From assembly GCA_041640075.1 (NCBI GenBank), contig JBEQAY010000019.1, positions 1 to 20,616 of the forward strand: a DNA stretch of 20,616 nt, written 5' to 3'. A program made the position numbers and the translations under genes. The first letter of the stretch is position 1, and each line of letters opens with the position of its first letter. The notes below the pieces were generated by a model. That model was not told the origin of the DNA. It ran no database searches and was given only the letters and a program-made list of their open reading frames with translations. Shown here piece after piece: positions 3,061 through 14,146 of the stretch. Origin of the DNA: Candidatus Nanohaloarchaea archaeon (GTDB taxonomy: Archaea; Nanohalarchaeota; Nanosalinia; Nanosalinales; Nanosalinaceae).

Positions 3061-3726
3061 ATGGACTACACTATTAAAGAGCTGCCAGAGAGCGAAAGGC
3101 CTAGGGAGAAACTTGAACAACACGGTGCTGATGATCTTACAGACGTTGAACTTCTCTCGATAATACTGAGGACAGGAACACAGGGAAAGAATGTCAAAGA
3201 ACTCTCCTCTGAAATCCTGAACACTTACTCTCTGGATCAGCTTGCGAGCCGTGAACTTTCCGACCTGAAGGAGTTTGAGGGAATTTCTCGTGTCAAGGCA
3301 GGTCAGCTACAGGCGGTAGGAGAACTTTCCCGGAGGTTGAAGAAGTCCAAGAAAGAGAAAATTGAGTCTCTGGGAGATGTGAAATCGGTCTGCGGAGACA
3401 TGAAGTTCCTGGAAGAGGAGATACTCAGAGTCTTCTATCTTTCCTCAGGGAACGAAGTACTGGCGAAGAAATCATTTGATGGAAACGTTGATTCTGTCGG
3501 GCTAGAACCTAGAGAAGTCTTTAAACCAGCATTAAACGCTAATGCCGCTGCACTTATACTTGTGCACAATCATCCTTCCGGTAAATCCGAGGCTACAGCC
3601 CAGGACATCGAAACTACCCGTGAAATGATTGATTTGGGTGAAAGTCTTGGAGTGGAGGTTCTGGATCACGTTGTTGCCGGTGAGAGCTTTTATTCGATGC
3701 GTGAAGCTTCAGAACTGTCTTTCTAG
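3061..3726 (+). CDS. radC: RadC family (UPF0758) JAB/MPN-domain protein
   Basis: ERPREKL, ELLSIILRTG, HhH-like GISRVKA, PREVFK, LVHNHPSG...AQD JAMM motif, VLDHVV. Confidence 0.93.
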   Translation: MDYTIKELPESERPREKLEQHGADDLTDVELLSIILRTGTQGKNVKELSSEILNTYSLDQLASRELSDLKEFEGISRVKAGQLQAVGELSRRLKKSKKEKIESLGDVKSVCGDMKFLEEEILRVFYLSSGNEVLAKKSFDGNVDSVGLEPREVFKPALNANAAALILVHNHPSGKSEATAQDIETTREMIDLGESLGVEVLDHVVAGESFYSMREASELSF

Positions 3727-3859: not shown

Positions 3860-4093
3860 ATGGCTATGGATGTACGCGAACACCGGCTTGTCCCAGAACA
3901 CCGCAAAATGAGTGAAGAAGAGGTCGAAGAACTTCTCGAGAAGCATGATATAGAGAAGCAGAATCTACCTAATATCAAGAGCAACGACTCTGCGTTAAAG
4001 CAGAAGGAGTTTGAGATTGGGGATGTTTTCGAGATAACGCGTGAAAGCCCTACAGCAGGCGAAACCACATATTACAGAAGAGTAGTCGAATAG
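3860..4093 (+). CDS. rpoH: DNA-directed RNA polymerase subunit H (Rpo5)
   Basis: HRLVPEH, LPNI..ND, GDVFEITRESPTAG..YYRRV; first gene of the archaeal rpo cluster. Confidence 0.97.
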   Translation: MAMDVREHRLVPEHRKMSEEEVEELLEKHDIEKQNLPNIKSNDSALKQKEFEIGDVFEITRESPTAGETTYYRRVVE

Positions 4094-4106: not shown

Positions 4107-5564
4107 ATGAAAGAAGAATTCCTGGAGCAACTAATAGACCGAAATCTGGTTAAGCACCAGATCGAATCCTACAACCACTTTGTAAACGAGAGAATCAAAG
4201 CAATACTTAACGAAGTTGAATCGATCGAACCAGAGCTCCCTGAAGGAGAAGATCTGGTTATCAAGATCGTTGACGTTGATATAAAGAAGCCTAAGATACA
4301 TGAGGCAGATGGCTCAGTCAGAAAAGTCATGCCTCGTGAAGCACGTATGCGAGATCTAACCTATTCTTCACAGATCGAAGTTACACTAACACCTATCTTC
4401 GAGGGAGTCAAACAGGAATCCGAAGAAGTTACGATCGGAGAAATCCCTGTCATGGTCGGCTCAGAACTTTGCTGGACCAACGACATGGACGAAGAAGAGA
4501 TGAGAGAGAACGGAGAGGATCCAAAGGATCCAGGAGGATACTTCATCATCAACGGTTCAGAGAAGACCATCATCGCTATGGAGGAACTGGCGAACAACAA
4601 ACCAGTATACCAGCACGATGACGAAGAACAGAAATGCCGTATCAACTCAGAGAACCAGGGATACGTTCAGAGACATATCCTGAGGAGGAAGAAGGATATC
4701 GTAAACATCAGCTTTGCTAACGTCAAGAAGACGCCTGCAGTAGCTCTCATCAGAGCTCTAGGTATGGAAACAGATAAGGAAATTGTCGAAGCGATCGGAG
4801 ACGACTACGCTTCAGACGTCTACCTGAACCTTTACGAAGTAGACGCTTCAAACAAAGAAGAAGCCTATGAATACATTGCAAACCGTGCAGGAATCACGAA
4901 CGACGTTGAAGACCGTGTAGAAAACATCCTGGACGAATACCTTCTACCACATCTTGGACAGGAGGAAGATGTCCGTGAAGAAAAGGCCGAGTTCCTTGCG
5001 AAGATGATCAGGAACACTATCGCACTAGGTAAAGGCGACATTGAGGAAGACGACATCGACCACTACGCCAACAAGAGGATGAACCTGGCAGGACAGCTTC
5101 TGGAGATGCAGTTTAGAAGCGTTTTCCTCGGAAAATGGGGTCTTGTCGCAAGAATGAAGTACAACTTCCAGAAATCCGCCAAGAGAGGGCGGCTACCAAG
5201 CCTCCAGTCCACAATCGTTTCCGACAAGCTCACCTCACAGATCATGGGAGCCATGGCGACAGGAAACTGGGTAGGAGGCAGAACAGGAATCTGCCAGAGA
5301 CTGGAAAGAAACAACCGTATCAAAACACTTTCACACCTCAGAAACATTGTATCTCCGCTTTCAAGCGACAGACAGCACTTCGAGGCAAGAGACCTTCACC
5401 CAACACAGTGGGGACGTGTCTGCCCGATCAAAACACCTGAGGGAATGAACATCGGGCTCAGAACCCACCTCGCTATGTCCGCAGACGTTTCTACAGGTAT
5501 GACCTCAAAGGAAAGAAACTCCCTGAAGGCAAAGCTTGAGGAAGCAGGTATCGACGCAAGGTGA
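4107..5564 (+). CDS. rpoB2: DNA-directed RNA polymerase subunit B'' (Rpo2N)
   Basis: HQIESYN, PREARMRDLTY, DPGGYFIINGSEK, DDIDHYANKR, LSHLR, EARDLHPTQWGRVCP.KTPEG; SD GAGGT 4093-4097. Confidence 0.97.
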   Translation: MKEEFLEQLIDRNLVKHQIESYNHFVNERIKAILNEVESIEPELPEGEDLVIKIVDVDIKKPKIHEADGSVRKVMPREARMRDLTYSSQIEVTLTPIFEGVKQESEEVTIGEIPVMVGSELCWTNDMDEEEMRENGEDPKDPGGYFIINGSEKTIIAMEELANNKPVYQHDDEEQKCRINSENQGYVQRHILRRKKDIVNISFANVKKTPAVALIRALGMETDKEIVEAIGDDYASDVYLNLYEVDASNKEEAYEYIANRAGITNDVEDRVENILDEYLLPHLGQEEDVREEKAEFLAKMIRNTIALGKGDIEEDDIDHYANKRMNLAGQLLEMQFRSVFLGKWGLVARMKYNFQKSAKRGRLPSLQSTIVSDKLTSQIMGAMATGNWVGGRTGICQRLERNNRIKTLSHLRNIVSPLSSDRQHFEARDLHPTQWGRVCPIKTPEGMNIGLRTHLAMSADVSTGMTSKERNSLKAKLEEAGIDAR

Positions 5565-5642: not shown

Positions 5643-7439
5643 ATGACTGAAGTATTCCTTGACGGAGAGATAATGGATGAGCTTGAGTCTCCAGAGGAAG
5701 TCAGAGAGGAACTCATCGAGAAAAGAAGAAACGGAGAGCTTGACAAAGAAGTCTCTGTTTATTACAACGAGAACCGTGACGAGATCAGGGTCAACACTGA
5801 TTCTGGAAGAGTCATGCGGCCAGTAGTTATTGTGGAAGACGGTGAACCAAGATTAACTGAAGAACAGGAGGAAAAACTAGAGGAAGGAGAAATCAGTCTT
5901 GAAGACCTTGAAGATCAGGGAATCATCGAATACCTGGATGCAGAAGAGGAAGAGAACGCTTACGTTTCTCTGAGCGAGGAAGAAGTCACAGACGAGCATA
6001 CTCACATGGAGATCGACCCGGAAATCATCAACGGGCTTTCAGCTTCTCTAACAGTTTACCCTGAGCATAACCGAGGAGACCGAGTTAACTTCGGTGCAAA
6101 GATGGCAGGACAGGGATTAGGAATGCCTACAAGAGAGTTCCACCAGAGATTCGACACTCAGGGCAACGTACTGACGTACGCTCAGAAGCCTGTAGTCGAA
6201 ACAAATACTTACGATACTCTTCTAGGAGATCACCCGATCGGACAGAACATGGTTATCGCCCTCGCATCCTTCGACGGATACAACATCGAGGACGCCGTAA
6301 TCATGAACAAGGCCTCACGTGAGAGAGGAATCGGCCGATCAACCTACATGAGAACCTACCAGACAGAAGCAAAGCGCTTCTACGGAGGACAGAAGGACAG
6401 AATCTCCATCCCTGACAAAGACGTCAGAGGATACAGAAGAGAAGAAGCATACGAACATCTCGACGAAGACGGAATCGTCAACCCAGAGACAGAAGTTGAC
6501 TCAGACGACGTAATCGTCGGAAAAACAAGCCCTCCAAAGTTCCTTGGAGGAGGCGGAGAAGAAATGAAGATGGGGCTGGCAGAAAGAAGAGAAACAAGCC
6601 TCACAGTAAGACACGGAGAACAGGGAGTTATCGACAAAGTCATGCTCTCTGAAACCGGAGACGGAGACAAACTCATCAAGGCAAAAATGCGTGAATACCG
6701 TGTACCAGAGCTTGGAGACAAGTTCGCAACAAGACACGGACAGAAGGGAGTCGTAGGAATGATCGCACCGGAGGAAAACATGCCATTCACAAAAGACGGC
6801 ATCACACCGGACATGATCCTATCTACACACGCAATTCCTTCCCGTATGACCGTGGCGCAGATAATCGAACTTATCGGAGGAAAAGTCGGAGCCCTACGTG
6901 GAGAGAAAGTAGATGCAACAGCCTACCACAACGAGGACAAAGACGAGCTAAGAGACCAGCTTGAAAAACTTGGTTTCGAATCCTCAGGAAAGGAAACCAT
7001 GTACAACGGAGTAACAGGAGAAGAGATGGAGGCAGAAATCCTTATCGGACCAGGTTACTACCTCAAGCTAAGCCACATGGTTGGAGACAAGGTCCACGCA
7101 AGAAGCAGAGGACCAGTAACACTCTTAACCAAGCAGCCAACTGAAGGAAGAAGCCAGGAAGGAGGACTCCGACTTGGAGAGATGGAAAAAGACGTCTTCG
7201 TGGGACATGGAGCCTCACTTCTACTCAAGGAGCGGTTCGGTGCTGACTCCACGAAGATCCACGTCGACAAGGATTCCGGGGACATCGGATACCTTGACCG
7301 TGAGAACAACAAGGTTGTCAAACAGTCAGGAGAAGAAGGAGACTTCGAGGAAACAGAGATTCCTCACGCGATGCTTCTACTGCTTGACGAGCTGAAATCA
7401 CTGATGATAGATACGGACATAGACGTGGAGGACGAATAG
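5643..7439 (+). CDS. rpoB1: DNA-directed RNA polymerase subunit B' (Rpo2C)
   Basis: GYNIEDA, GDKFATRHGQKG, HAIPSRMT, HMVGDKVHAR, QPTEGRSQEGGLRLGEMEKD; SD AGGTGA 5631-5636. Confidence 0.98.
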   Translation: MTEVFLDGEIMDELESPEEVREELIEKRRNGELDKEVSVYYNENRDEIRVNTDSGRVMRPVVIVEDGEPRLTEEQEEKLEEGEISLEDLEDQGIIEYLDAEEEENAYVSLSEEEVTDEHTHMEIDPEIINGLSASLTVYPEHNRGDRVNFGAKMAGQGLGMPTREFHQRFDTQGNVLTYAQKPVVETNTYDTLLGDHPIGQNMVIALASFDGYNIEDAVIMNKASRERGIGRSTYMRTYQTEAKRFYGGQKDRISIPDKDVRGYRREEAYEHLDEDGIVNPETEVDSDDVIVGKTSPPKFLGGGGEEMKMGLAERRETSLTVRHGEQGVIDKVMLSETGDGDKLIKAKMREYRVPELGDKFATRHGQKGVVGMIAPEENMPFTKDGITPDMILSTHAIPSRMTVAQIIELIGGKVGALRGEKVDATAYHNEDKDELRDQLEKLGFESSGKETMYNGVTGEEMEAEILIGPGYYLKLSHMVGDKVHARSRGPVTLLTKQPTEGRSQEGGLRLGEMEKDVFVGHGASLLLKERFGADSTKIHVDKDSGDIGYLDRENNKVVKQSGEEGDFEETEIPHAMLLLLDELKSLMIDTDIDVEDE

Positions 7440-7448
7440 GTGGTTCAA

Positions 7449-9923
7449 ATGAAGAGTATTACAGAACTTGACTTCGGAATCCTGAGTTCGGAAGAACTCA
7501 GGGAAAGAGCAGCAAAAGAGATCGACAAGGCAGAGGTCTACGACGCAGACGGATACCCGGTAGAGGGAGGCGTCATGGACCCGGCACTGGGAGTTATCGA
7601 CCCAGGAATGACCTGCCAGACTTGCGGAGGTCAGATGCGTGAATGCCAGGGACACTTCGGAAAGATCACACTTTCCCGCCCGGTAGTCCACTCACTTTAC
7701 GCGAAGAAAGTCAGAAACCTTCTCAGATTCACAAACATCAACGAGAACGACGAAGTTACCTGTCTTCTCAAGAACGAGGACAAACCCCTGAGAAAGTCAA
7801 ACAGGATGACAGAAGACCCTGAAACAGGTGAGGAAGTGCCTGATATCGACTTTGACAAACCTTACACATACTACGAAGACGGCGATAAAATCACGCCAAG
7901 CGAGATCAGGGAACGATTCAAGCGAATCCCTGAAGAAACGGCTGCAAAGCTTGGAGTAGAAGGATGTCGTCCTGAAGATCTTATCATCACACATGTGCCG
8001 GTTCCACCGGTAACGATGAGACCTTCAATCACCTTGGAAACAGGAGAAAGGTCGGAGGACGACATCACTCACAAGCTCGTCGACGTCATCAGGATCAACA
8101 AACGCCTCCAGAACAACATCGAAATCGAGGCACCTGACTTCATTATCGACGACCTGCACGAACTTCTGCAGTACCACGTTGCGACACTGTTCTACAATGA
8201 CATGAGCAACGTACCGCCGGCAAGACACAGATCCGGACGCTCACTCAAGTCACTGATCGAAAGAGTGCAGGGTAAGGAGGGACGTTTCAGACAGAACCTG
8301 ATCGGTAAACGTGTCAACTTCTCCGCCCGAACAGTAATTTCCCCGGACCCAAACATTGGGATCAACGAGGTCGGAGTACCGTTCATGATCGCGAAGAAAC
8401 TCTCCATCCCTGAAGAAATCACTGAGAGAAACTTCGACGAGATGAAGCAGAGGATCGAAAACGGCCCTGACACGCACCCAGGAGCCAACTACGTCTACCC
8501 GCCAAGCGGGAAGAGAAAAAGAATAACGGAAGAAAATCAGGAGGAAATCCTTGAGGAAATCGCACCTGATGAAGGTTGGAGAGTCGAGAGACATCTCAAC
8601 GACGGCGATACAGTACTGTTCAACCGTCAGCCATCACTTCACAGAATGTCTATCATGGCACATGAAGTCCGTGTACTTCCTTACCGAACCTTCAGATTGA
8701 ACCTGAACGTTTGTGCGCCTTACAACGCAGACTTCGACGGGGACGAGATGAACCTGCACGTACCACAGACAGAGGAGGCACGTGCCGAAGCAGAGGAACT
8801 GATGAAGGTCCAGGAGCACATCAAATCCCCGAAGATGGGAGGACCGATCGTCGGTATGCTTCAGGACTACGTATCAGGACTCTACCTCCTGACACAGGAA
8901 GACAGAACAGTCTCCAGAGAAAAAGCATTCAACCTGCTCGCAGAAGCAGGAGAGTACGAGGCAGACCTACCTGACAAGGAAGAAATCACAGGTAGAGAAC
9001 TTGTATCACTTTTCATACCAGAGGACATCTCCCTGACAATCAACGAGGGAGAAGACAACGAAGTAGTGATCGAAGAAGGAGAACTCATCAAGGGAGTTCT
9101 TGACGAGGACGCACTCGGAGACTACGGAGGAGAAATCATCCAGCAGCTCTCGATCGAATACGGAAGTGACAAAGTTGCAGAGTTCCTCAACCGTGTCTCA
9201 AGAGTCGGGGCAATCTTCCTGACAAAGAGAGGATTCTCAATTGGACTCGAGGACCTAGAAGTCTCAGACGACGCAACAGCACAGATCAAGGAGATGATCT
9301 CAGAGACGGTAGGAAAGGCTGAAGACCTTCTTGACGAGTACGAGGCAGGAGAGATGGAAGCGATTACAGGAAAGACACTTGAAGAGACAAGAGAGATCAG
9401 GATCACTAAGACCCTGAACGAGGTATTCGCAGACATTGGAGATCTTGTCTCCGAAAACTTCAGCGAAGAATCATCGGCTTACGTCATGGCAGACTCCGGA
9501 GCAAGAGGATCCATGCAGAACGTTACAACGATGGCAGGGCTTCTTGGACAGAACTCCGTAAGAGACCAGAGGATCCAGAGAGGGTACAAGAACAGAACAC
9601 TCTCGCACTTCAAATCTGGAGAGATGAGTCCACGAAGCAGAGGATTTGTTTCCTCCAGCATCCTGGAAGGACTAGACCCTGAAGAGATGTTCTTCCACCA
9701 GATGAGCCAGAGAAAGGCACTGATGGACAAGTCACTCCGTACCAAGACATCCGGATACATGTACAGAAGAGTAGCAAACGCACTTCAGGACTTGAATGTA
9801 GAGTACGACCAGACGGTCCGAAACGCTCAAGGCGACATCATCCAGTTCAGAGCTGGAGAAGACGGAGTCGACCCACAAAAATCTGATAGAGGAAGAATAT
9901 CAACCTCTATCGACTTAGAGTAG
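7449..9923 (+). CDS. rpoA1: DNA-directed RNA polymerase subunit A' (Rpo1N)
   Basis: Catalytic YNADFDGDEMN, CQTCG...CQGHFG, GKRVNFSARTVI, NRQPSLHR. Start moved to ATG 7449 because AGGTGG (7438-7443) reads as its SD. Confidence 0.98.
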   Translation: MKSITELDFGILSSEELRERAAKEIDKAEVYDADGYPVEGGVMDPALGVIDPGMTCQTCGGQMRECQGHFGKITLSRPVVHSLYAKKVRNLLRFTNINENDEVTCLLKNEDKPLRKSNRMTEDPETGEEVPDIDFDKPYTYYEDGDKITPSEIRERFKRIPEETAAKLGVEGCRPEDLIITHVPVPPVTMRPSITLETGERSEDDITHKLVDVIRINKRLQNNIEIEAPDFIIDDLHELLQYHVATLFYNDMSNVPPARHRSGRSLKSLIERVQGKEGRFRQNLIGKRVNFSARTVISPDPNIGINEVGVPFMIAKKLSIPEEITERNFDEMKQRIENGPDTHPGANYVYPPSGKRKRITEENQEEILEEIAPDEGWRVERHLNDGDTVLFNRQPSLHRMSIMAHEVRVLPYRTFRLNLNVCAPYNADFDGDEMNLHVPQTEEARAEAEELMKVQEHIKSPKMGGPIVGMLQDYVSGLYLLTQEDRTVSREKAFNLLAEAGEYEADLPDKEEITGRELVSLFIPEDISLTINEGEDNEVVIEEGELIKGVLDEDALGDYGGEIIQQLSIEYGSDKVAEFLNRVSRVGAIFLTKRGFSIGLEDLEVSDDATAQIKEMISETVGKAEDLLDEYEAGEMEAITGKTLEETREIRITKTLNEVFADIGDLVSENFSEESSAYVMADSGARGSMQNVTTMAGLLGQNSVRDQRIQRGYKNRTLSHFKSGEMSPRSRGFVSSSILEGLDPEEMFFHQMSQRKALMDKSLRTKTSGYMYRRVANALQDLNVEYDQTVRNAQGDIIQFRAGEDGVDPQKSDRGRISTSIDLE

Positions 9924-9933
9924 GTGATTAACA

Positions 9934-11049
9934 ATGACAGAAGAACTTGACTGGAAGGAACGCGCAGAAGAACTCCCACAAAAATACCAGGGCAGAGGCC
10001 TATCACAGGACGAGAAAGAGGAACTGCTTGAAAGATACAGGCAGATGCAGTACGAACCTGGAGAATCCATAGGAGTAGTGGCAGCACAGTCACTTTCCGA
10101 GCCTGCCACACAGCTTACGATGGAAACATACCACCAGGCAGGAGGAGCACAGGTCTCCCTGACAGCAGGACTACCACGTCTAATTGAGATCGTCGACGCG
10201 CGTAGAAACCCGAAGACACCGGCAATGGACGTCTACCTACATGAAGACTATAATTCAAAGGAAGACGCTCTCCGCGTCGCACGAAAGCTGCGGCAGGTAG
10301 TATTCGAGGACCTGATCACACAGGACACGATCGACATCATGCAGCTACAGGTGGAGTACAAGCTGAACAAGGATCTACTCGAAGACTACGACATCGACAT
10401 GGAGGACGTTAAACAGAGAGTAGGTGAATCCGTCAGAAAGTCCAAGATAAGTATTGACGGCGATAACCTGATCCTTGAATCATCCAAGGACGACTACGAC
10501 CTTAAAGATCTGAAGAAGATCAAGAACAAGGCTGAAGAAGCCCGTATCAAAGGTCTAAAAGGTATTGAACAGGTCGTTGTCAACGAAGACGATGGAGAGT
10601 GGAGACTGCAGACTGCAGGAACAGCTCTCAGAAAGACACTGAAGATACAGGAAGTGGACGAAAACAGGACAATTTCCAATGACCTGTTTGAGATCCTAAG
10701 CGTCCTCGGTGTCGAAGCACTTCGACAGTCTATCATCGACGAGGTAAACGAGACTCTGGAGGCCCAGGGAATCGGAGTCGACGACAGACACATCATGCTT
10801 CTCGCAGACATGATGACAAAGGAAGGAGAACTCAACGGAACCACTCGTTACGGAATCATGGGTAACAAGGAATCACTACTGGCACGTTCCGTATTCGAGG
10901 AGACAAAGAAGCATCTCCGTGAAGGCTCTCTAAGAGGAGAGACGGACGAGCTTGACGGAGTTATCGAGAACATCCTCGTCGGACAGCCGGTACCTGTGGG
11001 AACAGGTGCAGTCGACCTGAAGCCAAAGTTCACACCTCAGGACGACTAA
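9934..11049 (+). CDS. rpoA2: DNA-directed RNA polymerase subunit A'' (Rpo1C)
   Basis: PGESIGVVAAQSLSEPATQ, GLPRLIEIVDAR, RHIMLLADMMT, GVIENILVGQPVPVGTG; SD AGGTGA 9922-9927. Confidence 0.97.
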   Translation: MTEELDWKERAEELPQKYQGRGLSQDEKEELLERYRQMQYEPGESIGVVAAQSLSEPATQLTMETYHQAGGAQVSLTAGLPRLIEIVDARRNPKTPAMDVYLHEDYNSKEDALRVARKLRQVVFEDLITQDTIDIMQLQVEYKLNKDLLEDYDIDMEDVKQRVGESVRKSKISIDGDNLILESSKDDYDLKDLKKIKNKAEEARIKGLKGIEQVVVNEDDGEWRLQTAGTALRKTLKIQEVDENRTISNDLFEILSVLGVEALRQSIIDEVNETLEAQGIGVDDRHIMLLADMMTKEGELNGTTRYGIMGNKESLLARSVFEETKKHLREGSLRGETDELDGVIENILVGQPVPVGTGAVDLKPKFTPQDD

Positions 11050-11051
11050 AA

Positions 11052-11091
11052 ACTCTTTCTTTATTTCCTATTTTCTTACTCTCATATTTTT
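11052..11091 (+). terminator. Putative pyrimidine/T-rich terminator after rpoA2
   Basis: CTCTTTCTTTATTTCCTATTTTCTT...ATTTTT immediately after the stop codon. Confidence 0.5.
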
Positions 11092-11245
11092 GTGAATTCA
11101 GGTATCTCATGGCTTAACTGCACGGTAAGCTTATTCTTAGGAGAACTTCTTTACAGGGGAAAAACCTAAAAACAGGCATTTCATATATAAAGTTAACCGT
11201 CGTGATTACTACTACGAGCAAACATTTTTCGAAGTGTAGATACCT

Positions 11246-11656
11246 ATGACAACAGCGACTTATGACACGGAAATGATCAGAAACATCAACCTCTTCGAAT
11301 CAATCACTGATGTCGAGGTTAGAGACGCCATCATCAAGGAGGACGAGGCTTACTTCGTCGTCCCTGAAGGAAAGGCAGGAATGGCAATTGGAAAAGGCGG
11401 AAAAGTTGTTCAGAAAGTACAGAACAAGCTTGACAGAGATATCAAGATCTACGAGTACAACGACAATCTTGGAGCCTTCATCAACAACCTAGTACCAGCA
11501 GACATCAGAGGAGTAGACATCGAAGGAGATACTGTCCAGATCGATGTTCCACGAGACAACAAAGGAAGAGTTGTCGGGAAAGACGGGAACAAGATTGAAT
11601 CCATCCGCGAGATCCTTGCAAGAACTCACGGAGTCGAAGAGGTCAAGGTAGAATAG
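11246..11656 (+). CDS. nusA: Archaeal NusA-like transcription factor (two KH domains)
   Basis: FESITDV...D, AGMAIGKGG and RVVGKDG GxxG KH loops; conserved position after rpoA2. Confidence 0.95.
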   Translation: MTTATYDTEMIRNINLFESITDVEVRDAIIKEDEAYFVVPEGKAGMAIGKGGKVVQKVQNKLDRDIKIYEYNDNLGAFINNLVPADIRGVDIEGDTVQIDVPRDNKGRVVGKDGNKIESIREILARTHGVEEVKVE

Positions 11657-11768
11657 ATCATCTTCTAGAAACTGCAGAAACCTGATAGAACTCCTAGCAC
11701 CAGCTATATCATCATACTGACCTTGAAGGTGCTCATGTTTTAATTACAGAAAAATTCATCTCTAACAC

Positions 11769-13352
11769 ATGGGCATCGTCGACAAAGAGATCAGGGATGT
11801 AAAGAGGTTCGACGAGATAGTCCGCACGCTGGCAGACCAGGAAATGGGGATAATACTTGACCGACTTGACCTCAAGCACCGACTACCGTTCTCCAAGAGA
11901 TTCAAGCCCAGAAAGAAGGAACCAAAGCCGGAAAGGCTCAGAGATACGCTTGAAGAGCTCGGACCGACTTTCATCAAGTTCGGACAGATCATGGCACAGA
12001 GACCTGACATAGTTCCGCAGAGATACATAGAGGAGCTACAGGGTCTGGAGGATTCTGTCGAACCGTTTGACTCGACAGATGCGAAAAGGATAATTGAAGA
12101 AGAAGTCGGTGACATAGATAAATACTTCTCGGAGTTCGATGAAGAACCTATGGCAGCTGCATCCATTGCACAGGTGCATCAAGCTACTCTGAACTCTGGT
12201 GACGAGGTTGTTATCAAGGTGCGTCGGCCCGGTATCAAGGAGCAGGTGAAGACAGACCTTGAAATCCTCAAGTTCTTGGCCAGAAGAGGAGAAAAACACC
12301 TGGAGATATTCCAGCAGGTAAGACTGGTTAAACTTGTTGAAGAGTTCGAGAAGTGGATTAAAGAAGAGATGGATCTGGAAAACGAAGGTAGAAACGCTGA
12401 GATAATCCAGGAAAACATGAAGGATCTGGAAAAGGTCAAGATACCCGATATATACAATGATTTCACCTCTGAACGCGTACTTGTCATGGAGAAAGTAGGA
12501 GGGGTCAAGTGTACGGAGACCGAGAAACTGGACGAGATGGATATAGATGTCTCGGACTTGACCAGGAGAGGAATCAGGATGGGTCTGAACCAGGTTATCA
12601 GAGATGGTTTCTTCCACGCCGATCCCCACCCGTCGAACTTTTTCATAGACCAAGACGGCAGCATAATTTTGATCGATTTTGGAATGACCGGAAAGCTGAC
12701 CAAGAAGACCAGGAGACGCATGGGACTCCTCTTTCTGCACATAGCCAATGAAGATGTTGATTCAGCAGTAGATGTGATCACTGATATAGGACGTGTCTCA
12801 GATGACGCGGATGTTGAAGGATTCAAGGAAGTAGTTGAGGACATGGTTCTCACCTTGAGAAATTCGAAGATAGAGGATCATAGCTTGACGAAGACGGCGT
12901 TCCAGACAGTTGTGAAGGCATCAAAGAAAGGAATCTACCTGCCGACCAACCTGGTGCTCTCAGGGAAGGCCCTTGTCACGCTTGAAGGCATACTTTTGAC
13001 TGTCAACCCTGAGGCCAGGATCACACAGGATTACAGAAAGGAAGTAGAGAAGATTCTGAAGGAGGAGCACTCTCCGAAGCAGATGGGCAAGTCGTTCATG
13101 ATAGACATGCTCCAGAACAAGGAACTCTTCACAAAGGCACCTTCCAAGATAAACGAAGCAATACAGAGTGAGGAAAACCATAACACAGAGGTCAAGGTTG
13201 AGACCTCGGACGAACACGAAGACATCGTTACAGCAGGACTTATACTGGGTGCTACATTTCTGCTTTCGCAGGTTCTTCCGAATAAATCACTGCAGATACT
13301 GGGTGTAGTGTTCCTGCTTGCAGCTGCAGTACTCTTCAGCAAGAAGATATAA
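11769..13352 (+). CDS. ABC1/AarF/UbiB family atypical protein kinase-like protein with two C-terminal TM helices
   Basis: LEELGPTFIKFGQ (KxGQ), AAASIAQVH (A-rich loop), VVIKVRRP, FFHADPHPSN, LIDFG; hydrophobic C-terminal hairpin. Confidence 0.93.
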   Translation: MGIVDKEIRDVKRFDEIVRTLADQEMGIILDRLDLKHRLPFSKRFKPRKKEPKPERLRDTLEELGPTFIKFGQIMAQRPDIVPQRYIEELQGLEDSVEPFDSTDAKRIIEEEVGDIDKYFSEFDEEPMAAASIAQVHQATLNSGDEVVIKVRRPGIKEQVKTDLEILKFLARRGEKHLEIFQQVRLVKLVEEFEKWIKEEMDLENEGRNAEIIQENMKDLEKVKIPDIYNDFTSERVLVMEKVGGVKCTETEKLDEMDIDVSDLTRRGIRMGLNQVIRDGFFHADPHPSNFFIDQDGSIILIDFGMTGKLTKKTRRRMGLLFLHIANEDVDSAVDVITDIGRVSDDADVEGFKEVVEDMVLTLRNSKIEDHSLTKTAFQTVVKASKKGIYLPTNLVLSGKALVTLEGILLTVNPEARITQDYRKEVEKILKEEHSPKQMGKSFMIDMLQNKELFTKAPSKINEAIQSEENHNTEVKVETSDEHEDIVTAGLILGATFLLSQVLPNKSLQILGVVFLLAAAVLFSKKI

Positions 13353-13375
13353 CAAAAATAATGTAATTTGAGGTT

Positions 13376-14032
13376 TTAATTTTCTCCAGTAATTTCTTTC
13401 ATGAGTTTGTTAACAGCTTTGTCATTCCTGTACAGGAATGTACTCATTTCTTCTTCTCTTTCTTCTATCTCCTCGAGTTTTGTAAGTTCAGAGGCCTCAT
13501 CTCCTAATGTATCCTTTATGTCGCTAGTCATATCTTCTATTTTTTCCAGGTTCTGATGGACCTCTCTTGCTGCTCTTGAATATTCCTGGATGAGCTCTCT
13601 TCCTTCTTCTGAAATTTTTTCTGTTAATTCTCTTTCGTTCTCTGCAGATTCTCTTGCCTGTGATTTTTGATCATCAGCAATTAAATCAAGGGTGTTTGTC
13701 TGTTGAAGCCCTTTGGCTTCCCTTGCATCTTTTTCTGCCTCTGTTGATTCTTCCAATTTACGCTTTGCTCTTTTTCTTACACTTCTGAGTCTCCTTTCCA
13801 AATCCTCTGGAACATCCCCTGATTTCTTTCTAATTTGCTGACATTCTCTTAGAGTTGAATTTGTTAATTCCCTCAATTCTTCAATTTCTTTCCCGGTTTT
13901 CTCGTGCATCTCCTCAATCTTTTCGAGTTCTTCTTCCATTCCTGAGAACTTTTCGGCTATTTTGTTTAATGTACCTTCTTCTTTTTCAATATCCTCTTCA
14001 ATTTCCTCTAAAGCTGTTATGAGTGGCGCCAT
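13376..14032 (-). CDS. Hypothetical coiled-coil protein (218 aa)
   Basis: E/K-rich heptad-like helical sequence throughout; TATA-like TTTAAAA about 25-30 nt upstream on the minus strand. Confidence 0.8.
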   Translation of the reverse strand: MAPLITALEEIEEDIEKEEGTLNKIAEKFSGMEEELEKIEEMHEKTGKEIEELRELTNSTLRECQQIRKKSGDVPEDLERRLRSVRKRAKRKLEESTEAEKDAREAKGLQQTNTLDLIADDQKSQARESAENERELTEKISEEGRELIQEYSRAAREVHQNLEKIEDMTSDIKDTLGDEASELTKLEEIEEREEEMSTFLYRNDKAVNKLMKEITGEN

Positions 14033-14102
14033 GGTGTGATTTTATTATATTTTAGATTTTAAATCGTTTTGCCGACTTCTGTTACAAAATTAGCGAATGG
14101 TC

Positions 14103-14122
14103 GTACACCACCCGTATAAAAA
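14103..14122 (+). promoter_or_regulatory. Putative rps12 promoter (leaderless or near-leaderless)
   Basis: TATAAAAA at 14115-14122, ending 24 nt before ATG 14147; no SD. Confidence 0.6.
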
Positions 14123-14146
14123 GTTTAACTTAAACTGTATCCTTGT

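Follow-up and report, generated by a model that had tools for sequence, protein, structure and literature searches.

We show here that the bridge helix of a nanohaloarchaeal RNA polymerase has lost all three glycines of its N-terminal hinge, and that this rewritten helix is real and fixed throughout the family to which the organism belongs. The helix is part of RpoA' (Rpo1N), which is encoded in a stretch of 20,616 nucleotides that was analysed as a whole and is called the window in what follows. The canonical hinge has glycine at positions 819, 820 and 823 (yeast Rpb1 numbering, used throughout for helix and trigger loop); in the 50 genomes of the window's family, glycine was found at none of the three positions (0/50).

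The glycine-free helix and its fixation in the family

The window carries a normal archaeal polymerase operon, rpoH-B''-B'-A'-A''-nusA, in which rpoH (3860..4093) is the first gene and is followed by rpoB'' (4107..5564), rpoB' (5643..7439), rpoA' (7440..9923) and rpoA'' (Rpo1C; 9934..11049), all on the + strand. RpoA' is an 827-aa protein that lies above the cut-offs of TIGR02390 and PRK08566, passing the NCBIfam curated cut-offs for RpoA' in the profile comparison, and it has the metal-A Asp triad and the nucleic-acid-contacting helix residues of an archaeal Rpo1N. The 371-aa product of rpoA'' matches TIGR02389 (E 2.7e-113), under the curated cut-off of that model. The NucS endonuclease (1609-2406, − strand) and a RadC-family gene (3061-3726, + strand) lie directly upstream of the operon, and in the region that follows it (11050-14146 of the window) the nusA-rps12 run is broken by two genes, one for a kinase of the UbiB family (11769-13352) and one, on the opposite strand, for a coiled-coil protein (13376-14032). 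Between rpoA'' and nusA, a place where an L30e gene is usual, no ORF of at least 60 aa was found.

The bridge helix region (9678..9791, + strand; RpoA' 747-784, corresponding to yeast Rpb1 810-847) has a stop-free translation, and positions 9642-9839 align gap-free to yeast Rpb1 798-863 (PDB 1i3q_A). In this alignment the seven substitutions named in the original prediction (S819, Q820, K822, A823, K827, K832 and Y838) are at the positions given for them, and A817Q, A828S and V829L can be added to the list. The hinge reads S819-Q820-R821-K822-A823 (9705..9719), with R821 retained; in the central and C-terminal helix (9729..9764), K827, S828, L829, K832 and Y838 are altered and T831, S834, G835, Y836 and R839 retained. 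That the GG pair is the N-terminal hinge of the helix is borne out by the literature on the M. jannaschii and yeast enzymes, in which the canonical glycine hinge is termed BH-HN (Weinzierl 2010) or H3-H4 (Kireeva 2012). The catalytic metal-A motif, which had been described as intact, is so at 8724..8744.

Matches to RpoA' were obtained in 67 of the 70 Nanohaloarchaeota genomes searched. Within the window's family, Q820, R821, K822, A823, K827, S828, L829, K832 and Y838 are each present in 50/50 genomes, residue 819 is Ser in 39 and Ala in 11, and R821, T831, G835, Y836, R839 and the trigger-loop residues Q1078 and H1085 are likewise retained in all 50. Across these genomes the changed helix residues are encoded by two to four codons each. 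The single copy and the purifying selection suggest that the polymerase is active in transcription. The helix motif shares its degree of conservation within the family with about half of the RpoA' columns (319/643). Positions 825 and 830 switch jointly six times inside the family (10/50 genomes; 5/5 independent pairs, p=0.0625, in a test that cannot reach 0.05). All of the 87 nearest database proteins share the motif; the nearest named one, from Ca. Nanosalina (P0007), is 90% identical over A' 600-827, and Nanohalococcus, Nanohalovita and Nanohalobium proteins with the motif are also among the matches, which places the window with the Nanosalina-containing family. The motif is therefore not peculiar to one assembly. 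Nor does it belong to ordinary Euryarchaeota: 85 of 91 distant matches have GG and the other six have G820, and named Halobacteria (P0118, P0119) retain GGREG.

The source assembly is 89% complete and in 58 contigs, which leaves some room for an assembly error or for a decayed second copy of rpoA', but we consider either to be vanishingly improbable. Only one rpoA' match was found in the 0.98 Mb of this assembly and it lies in a normal operon, the 50 relatives agree with it, and the variation is synonymous. In addition, the helix is covered by contigs of four sequencing runs from four studies, one of which may be the source sample; among the differences listed for these contigs the only one within 9678-9791, at 9788, is synonymous. 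The listed runs matching the window's DNA included no RNA datasets.

Stepwise origin and distribution among archaea

A tree of A' and A'' was calculated with the helix and loop columns masked (FastTree, 177 rows; IQ-TREE, 33 rows). The Nanohaloarchaeota adjoin a small phylum, which we take to be EX4484-52, with KGREG at the hinge in 33/33 loci, and then the Aenigmatarchaeota (named via P0110 and P0120). When placed on the tree, the hinge forms a ladder that leads from canonical GGREG, via NGREG or NSREx in Aenigmatarchaeota and KGREG in the sister phylum, to SQREG in basal nanohaloarchaea, SGREG in two nanohaloarchaeal families (14 genomes, with G820 and G823 kept) and S/AQRKA in the window's family. 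In the neighbouring phyla G819 is already gone and 832 already basic, this last residue being Lys in 50/50 genomes of the family and Arg in 17/17 other nanohaloarchaea as well as in the sister lineage. In neighbouring lineages K827 was likewise there before G820 and G823 were lost, although the basal nanohaloarchaea have Gln or Thr at this position. The motif thus appears, from the tree, to have arisen stepwise across sister lineages. Since a single clade of Q820 bearers was rejected (AU p=0.0009), Gly820 was most simply regained once, the alternative being three separate gains of Q820. In one basal nanohaloarchaeal family, A' and A'' are in one reading frame (a 1187-aa open frame in L043/G001 and a 1170-aa protein, P0100).

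The original prediction spoke of three new lysines, which is overstated: K827 and a basic residue at 832 are found in neighbouring lineages, and K822 is the invariant Lys781 of bacteria. K822 is present in 0/97 mixed archaeal, 0/77 Woesearchaeota-type, 0/33 sister-phylum and 0/47 Aenigmatarchaeota loci (samples with an overlap of a few genomes), and is the only feature of the motif that is unique among the archaea read. Loss of hinge glycines is more widespread: of the 97 mixed archaeal loci, which come from 66 families, 35 are without G819, six without G820 and three without any of the three glycines. Two of these three sit in a clade with relatives named Korarchaeum, and 23 of 24 Korarchaeum-type proteins are without all three hinge glycines and also have K827 and Y838. 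These proteins (L195 and L196, from G111 and G088; P0121-P0144) combine a fused A'A'' with a glycine-free hinge that arose independently and a rewritten trigger-loop tip. In Aenigmatarchaeota, from which 47 loci were read in 61 genomes searched, all three glycines are gone in 16 loci, one of them with Q820/A823, and K827 is present in 40. Korarchaeum-type and some Aenigmatarchaeota polymerases therefore resemble the window's in having none of the hinge glycines, but differ from it in an acidic residue at 822, in having no trigger-loop E1082 and in their separate branches. In S. pombe Rpb1, residue 819 is Ala. Among 80 viral_contigs loci (34-41% identity) the helix was caught in 30, all with G820 and none with K822.

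A relation to the unusual N. equitans polymerase had also been suggested. Divergent polymerases of N. equitans, Woesearchaeota and Pacearchaeota have indeed been described (Nottebaum and Weinzierl 2021; PMC8204694), and they are, like the window's, DPANN enzymes in which helix, trigger loop and fork loop 3 have changed together. The likeness does not extend to the helix itself. Woesearchaeota-type loci share with the window the absence of G819 (77/77), for the most part the absence of G823, and Y838, but they have P832 and G820 in 77/77 loci, D822, and Asn or Asp at trigger-loop 1082. Proline at the 832 equivalent, which marks the Nanoarchaeota type, is replaced by Lys in the window's family and by Arg in other nanohaloarchaea, and the metal-B motif is altered in N. 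equitans, known here by its published description, but intact in the window. The proline helix of Nanoarchaeota is thus, judged from these residues, a different solution from the nanohaloarchaeal helix. The E. coli beta' hinge (778-GARKGL-783) is like the window's in a non-glycine 820, Lys822 and Leu829, as is its trigger loop in Leu/Met at 1079/1081; it is unlike the window's in that two of the three glycines are kept and that the trigger loop has R933/F935. The flanks of the window's helix are archaeal, and we therefore read the bacterial likeness as convergence. Among the matches listed, which are mostly outside subscription journals, no description of a nanohaloarchaeal or korarchaeal bridge helix was found, and the available parts of PMC7289017, PMC3959191 and PMC5127505 do not discuss the nanohaloarchaeal one.

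Changes in the partners of the helix

The original prediction overlooked three changes in elements that work with the helix: trigger-loop E1082, a Glu-to-Lys exchange in beta-D loop II and a Tyr-to-Phe exchange in the link. The trigger loop (10087..10197, + strand) has S1073, L1079, M1081, E1082 (10123-10125), Y1084 and Q1086, with Q1078 and H1085 kept. E1082 and Y1084 are present in 65/65 Nanohaloarchaeota genomes read, and Glu1082 was seen in 0/94 mixed archaeal, 0/74 Woesearchaeota-type, 0/33 sister-phylum and 0/46 Aenigmatarchaeota loci (0/247, in samples that overlap by a few genomes); several trigger-loop reads, such as three Aenigmatarchaeota with Asp1082, resemble intein starts and were not counted as residues. 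The trigger-loop glycine G1073 is also lost in 38 of the 50 family genomes. A candidate rule by which glycine loss in the helix needs a small trigger-loop residue at 1086 was rejected, since F1086 is still present in six loci with an NSRES hinge.

In rpoB'', beta-D loop II, or fork loop 3 (5421-5459), has Lys (5430-5432) where Glu is usual; the residue is Lys in 24/24 nanohaloarchaeal loci and Glu in 36/38 others. The link motif of rpoB' (6060-6119) is rewritten and has Phe (6090-6092) against Tyr in archaeal structures, with Phe in 19/19 family loci and Tyr in 8/8 basal nanohaloarchaeal loci. This Phe is equated with yeast rpb2 Y769 by position only, yeast Rpb2 not being among the matches. 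The metal-B motif (6282-6299, + strand) is intact in the window, and its Glu-Asp pair is retained in all nanohaloarchaeal loci listed. The residues that contact nucleic acid or metal, as far as described in PMC2776397, are all kept, namely both metal motifs, R821, T831, G835, Y836, R839, Q1078 and H1085. The cleavage factor TFS is encoded with an intact acidic hairpin in the source genome, and TFS family matches were obtained in 67 of 70 Nanohaloarchaeota genomes. Lower Pfam scores had hinted at TFS degeneration, a possibility that was discarded, as the hairpin is intact and the drop in score goes with the C-terminal zinc ribbon, into which a short acidic stretch is inserted in several genera (G000:C26:3977-4099).

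Compared with canonical Rpo1N/Rpo1C and Pol II Rpb1 (PDB 4qiw, 8cro, 2waq and 1i3q), the window's polymerase is alike in operon order, domains, metal-A and metal-B motifs, the gap-free length of the helix, T831/G835/Y836/R839, trigger-loop Q1078/H1085 and TFS. It differs in having no glycine at 819, 820 or 823, in K822, K827, S828, L829, K832 and Y838, in trigger-loop E1082/Y1084 and in its rewritten link and beta-D loop II.

Two further regions of the enzyme have diverged. RpoB'' (5100-5480) has dense fixed changes at otherwise conserved sites, at about residues 339-356, 396-423 and 442-454, mostly common to the basal families. In the clamp-head region of RpoA' (7720-7860) the second zinc site is without its cysteines in the window; across the family this site has at most one Cys in 39 of 76 parsed proteins and four or five in 37, and four are kept in the 12/12 others parsed.

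An ordinary or an altered nucleotide-addition cycle

Published mutagenesis would lead one to expect a severe defect from such a hinge. In M. jannaschii, any non-glycine residue at G809 or G810 has been reported to reduce activity severely, G813 being less sensitive (PMC2988716). In yeast, the single exchanges G819A and G820A slow the enzyme, whereas G823A seems to speed it up, and replacing all three glycines by Ala is lethal; the trigger-loop exchange G1073A makes the enzyme very slow and impairs its fidelity, and hinge mutants of helix and trigger loop are additive and not coupled (PMC3533926). The retained residues T831, G835, Y836, R839 and R821 have been described as essential in model enzymes (PMC2776397, PMC3533926). 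The nanohaloarchaeal family lives without the glycines that mutagenesis found to be needed.

The reading that we favour, and regard as probable though well short of certain, is that this sole polymerase, with its family-fixed glycine-free helix, runs an ordinary nucleotide-addition cycle in which a likely stiffer helix is offset by activating changes in neighbouring elements that accumulated stepwise. A stiffer helix would follow from helix propensity, since on a propensity scale residues 816-826 favour the helix by some 2.2 kcal/mol over the canonical hinge, a rough and sequence-based figure. Compensation could come from K827, whose M. jannaschii equivalent Q817K is superactive (PMC2988716), and from A823, given the faster yeast G823A. 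It may also come from the link Phe: in yeast, N1082E is loss-of-function alone and shows positive epistasis with rpb2 Y769F (+2.83), the likely equivalent of this Phe, and L1081M is lethal alone and viable with Y769F or T834P (PMC12391331). K822 would restore, in bacterial fashion, contacts with the F loop and the beta-D loop; the corresponding E. coli Lys781 has been reported to be invariant in bacteria, and its loss gives the strongest defect (PMC3077646). Fast DPANN evolution followed by entrenchment may then suffice for the origin of the helix, with no need for new chemistry. We favour an ordinary cycle on the grounds of fixation, the kept contact residues, the intermediates in sister lineages, the changes that trigger loop, link and beta-D loop II underwent in parallel, and the retention of TFS. 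Compensation is argued here by analogy with other enzymes and their single substitutions, whose effects depend strongly on context, and some data speak against it: none of Y769F, T834P and S713P rescues yeast F1084Y from lethality (PMC12391331), the basal families pair E1082 with a link Tyr (8/8), the yeast hinge mutants of helix and trigger loop are additive, and the six tests listed, of nine, gave no support for glycine loss co-varying across archaea with K827, Y838 or 832 (p 0.6-1).

It has also to be considered, as the original prediction proposed, that the cycle itself is changed, the kink being gone and a charge network of K822, E1082 and the beta-D-loop Lys gating trigger-loop closure, with a shift in speed, fidelity or pausing. 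This would fit the finding that K822 and E1082 are in none of the other archaeal loci read and that the beta-D-loop Lys is in every nanohaloarchaeal locus, as well as the gain in helix propensity. It would also fit published enzymes: broken helix-beta contacts in E. coli have been reported to give fast, error-prone and pause-blind polymerases (PMC3959191), and the N. equitans polymerase, which works in vitro, has unusual properties there that include stimulation by fluoride (PMC8204694). A supposed gain-of-function precedent, E. coli beta E562, was left unused, as the term was not found in the available text of PMC3959191. Yet all residues of catalysis and substrate contact are kept, as is TFS, and the helix shows no significant clustering of changes. 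Of the sites in four polymerase subunits that are conserved in non-DPANN archaea, 17% are altered; the helix goes just marginally beyond this share (7/20 against 107/635 sites, p=0.064) and is not significantly singled out for rewriting, nor are five mobile elements together significantly enriched (19/78, p=0.12); G819 and trigger-loop 1082 are outside this count, being less than 90% conserved in the outgroup. A changed cycle thus seems unlikely to us, and compensation accounts for the data as well as an altered cycle does.

The lethality of the window's trigger loop in yeast was rejected as a sign of oddity. Residues 1076-1106 bear all 15 substitutions of a haplotype that is lethal in yeast Pol II (fitness -9.3), but most archaeal loops are also lethal there: in the part of the dataset examined, 18/18 archaeal-type haplotypes are below -6.5, and only about 2% of prokaryotic trigger-loop haplotypes with a lethal substitution have been reported to be viable in yeast (PMC11631520).

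A third explanation is salt adaptation, in which the steps taken by nanohaloarchaea would adjust the dynamics of helix and loop to a salt-in cytoplasm with molar KCl. The best runs for the window's DNA come from hypersaline lakes, brine and salterns; every nanohaloarchaeal family read has E1082 and the beta-D-loop Lys as fixed residues, and E1082 is in neither neighbouring phylum. However, the canonical hinge of the named Halobacteria weakens this reading; Aenigmatarchaeota and Korarchaeum-type proteins also show G819 loss, basic residues at 827 and 832 and even total glycine loss, G820 and G823 are still present in two nanohaloarchaeal families, and the helix gains lysines (7 K/R against 1 D/E) inside an acidic protein (153 D/E against 100 K/R). 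We consider salt adaptation to be distinctly improbable as the explanation.

Whether the bridge helix must kink in its N-terminal stretch, or whether its glycines just give neighbouring loops room, is an open question, and the natural ladder GGREG, SGREG, SQREG, SQRKA points to candidate suppressors and suggests in what order they could be tested. A bolder proposal, which we put forward tentatively and with more doubt than conviction, is that the glycine hinge, for long regarded as essential, is dispensable in nature, that it was given up independently in three or more archaeal lineages, and that in the window's family the bacterial-type K822, the phylum-specific E1082 and the beta-D-loop Lys form a charge-swapped gate that sets the catalytic rate without a kink. 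If this were true, structural and kinetic work could turn to co-cultured nanohaloarchaea for the first multisubunit polymerase that is hinge-less by nature. The significance of the helix is tempered by the divergent DPANN active sites already published (PMC8204694), by the recurrence of the glycine-free state and by the fast evolution of the whole enzyme, and the family-wide glycine-free hinge is a variant of already known divergent archaeal active sites. Two kinds of polymerase came up besides. L206, from a 0.5-Mb, 77%-complete genome (G073), has an extremely divergent enzyme with a glycine-free hinge, a proline-containing helix and a trigger loop without the usual hinge motif. Seven Aenigmatarchaeota loci with an NSREN hinge (among L409-L455) have Thr for the catalytic trigger-loop His1085, plus a loop insertion, and these may be more striking than the glycine-free hinge.
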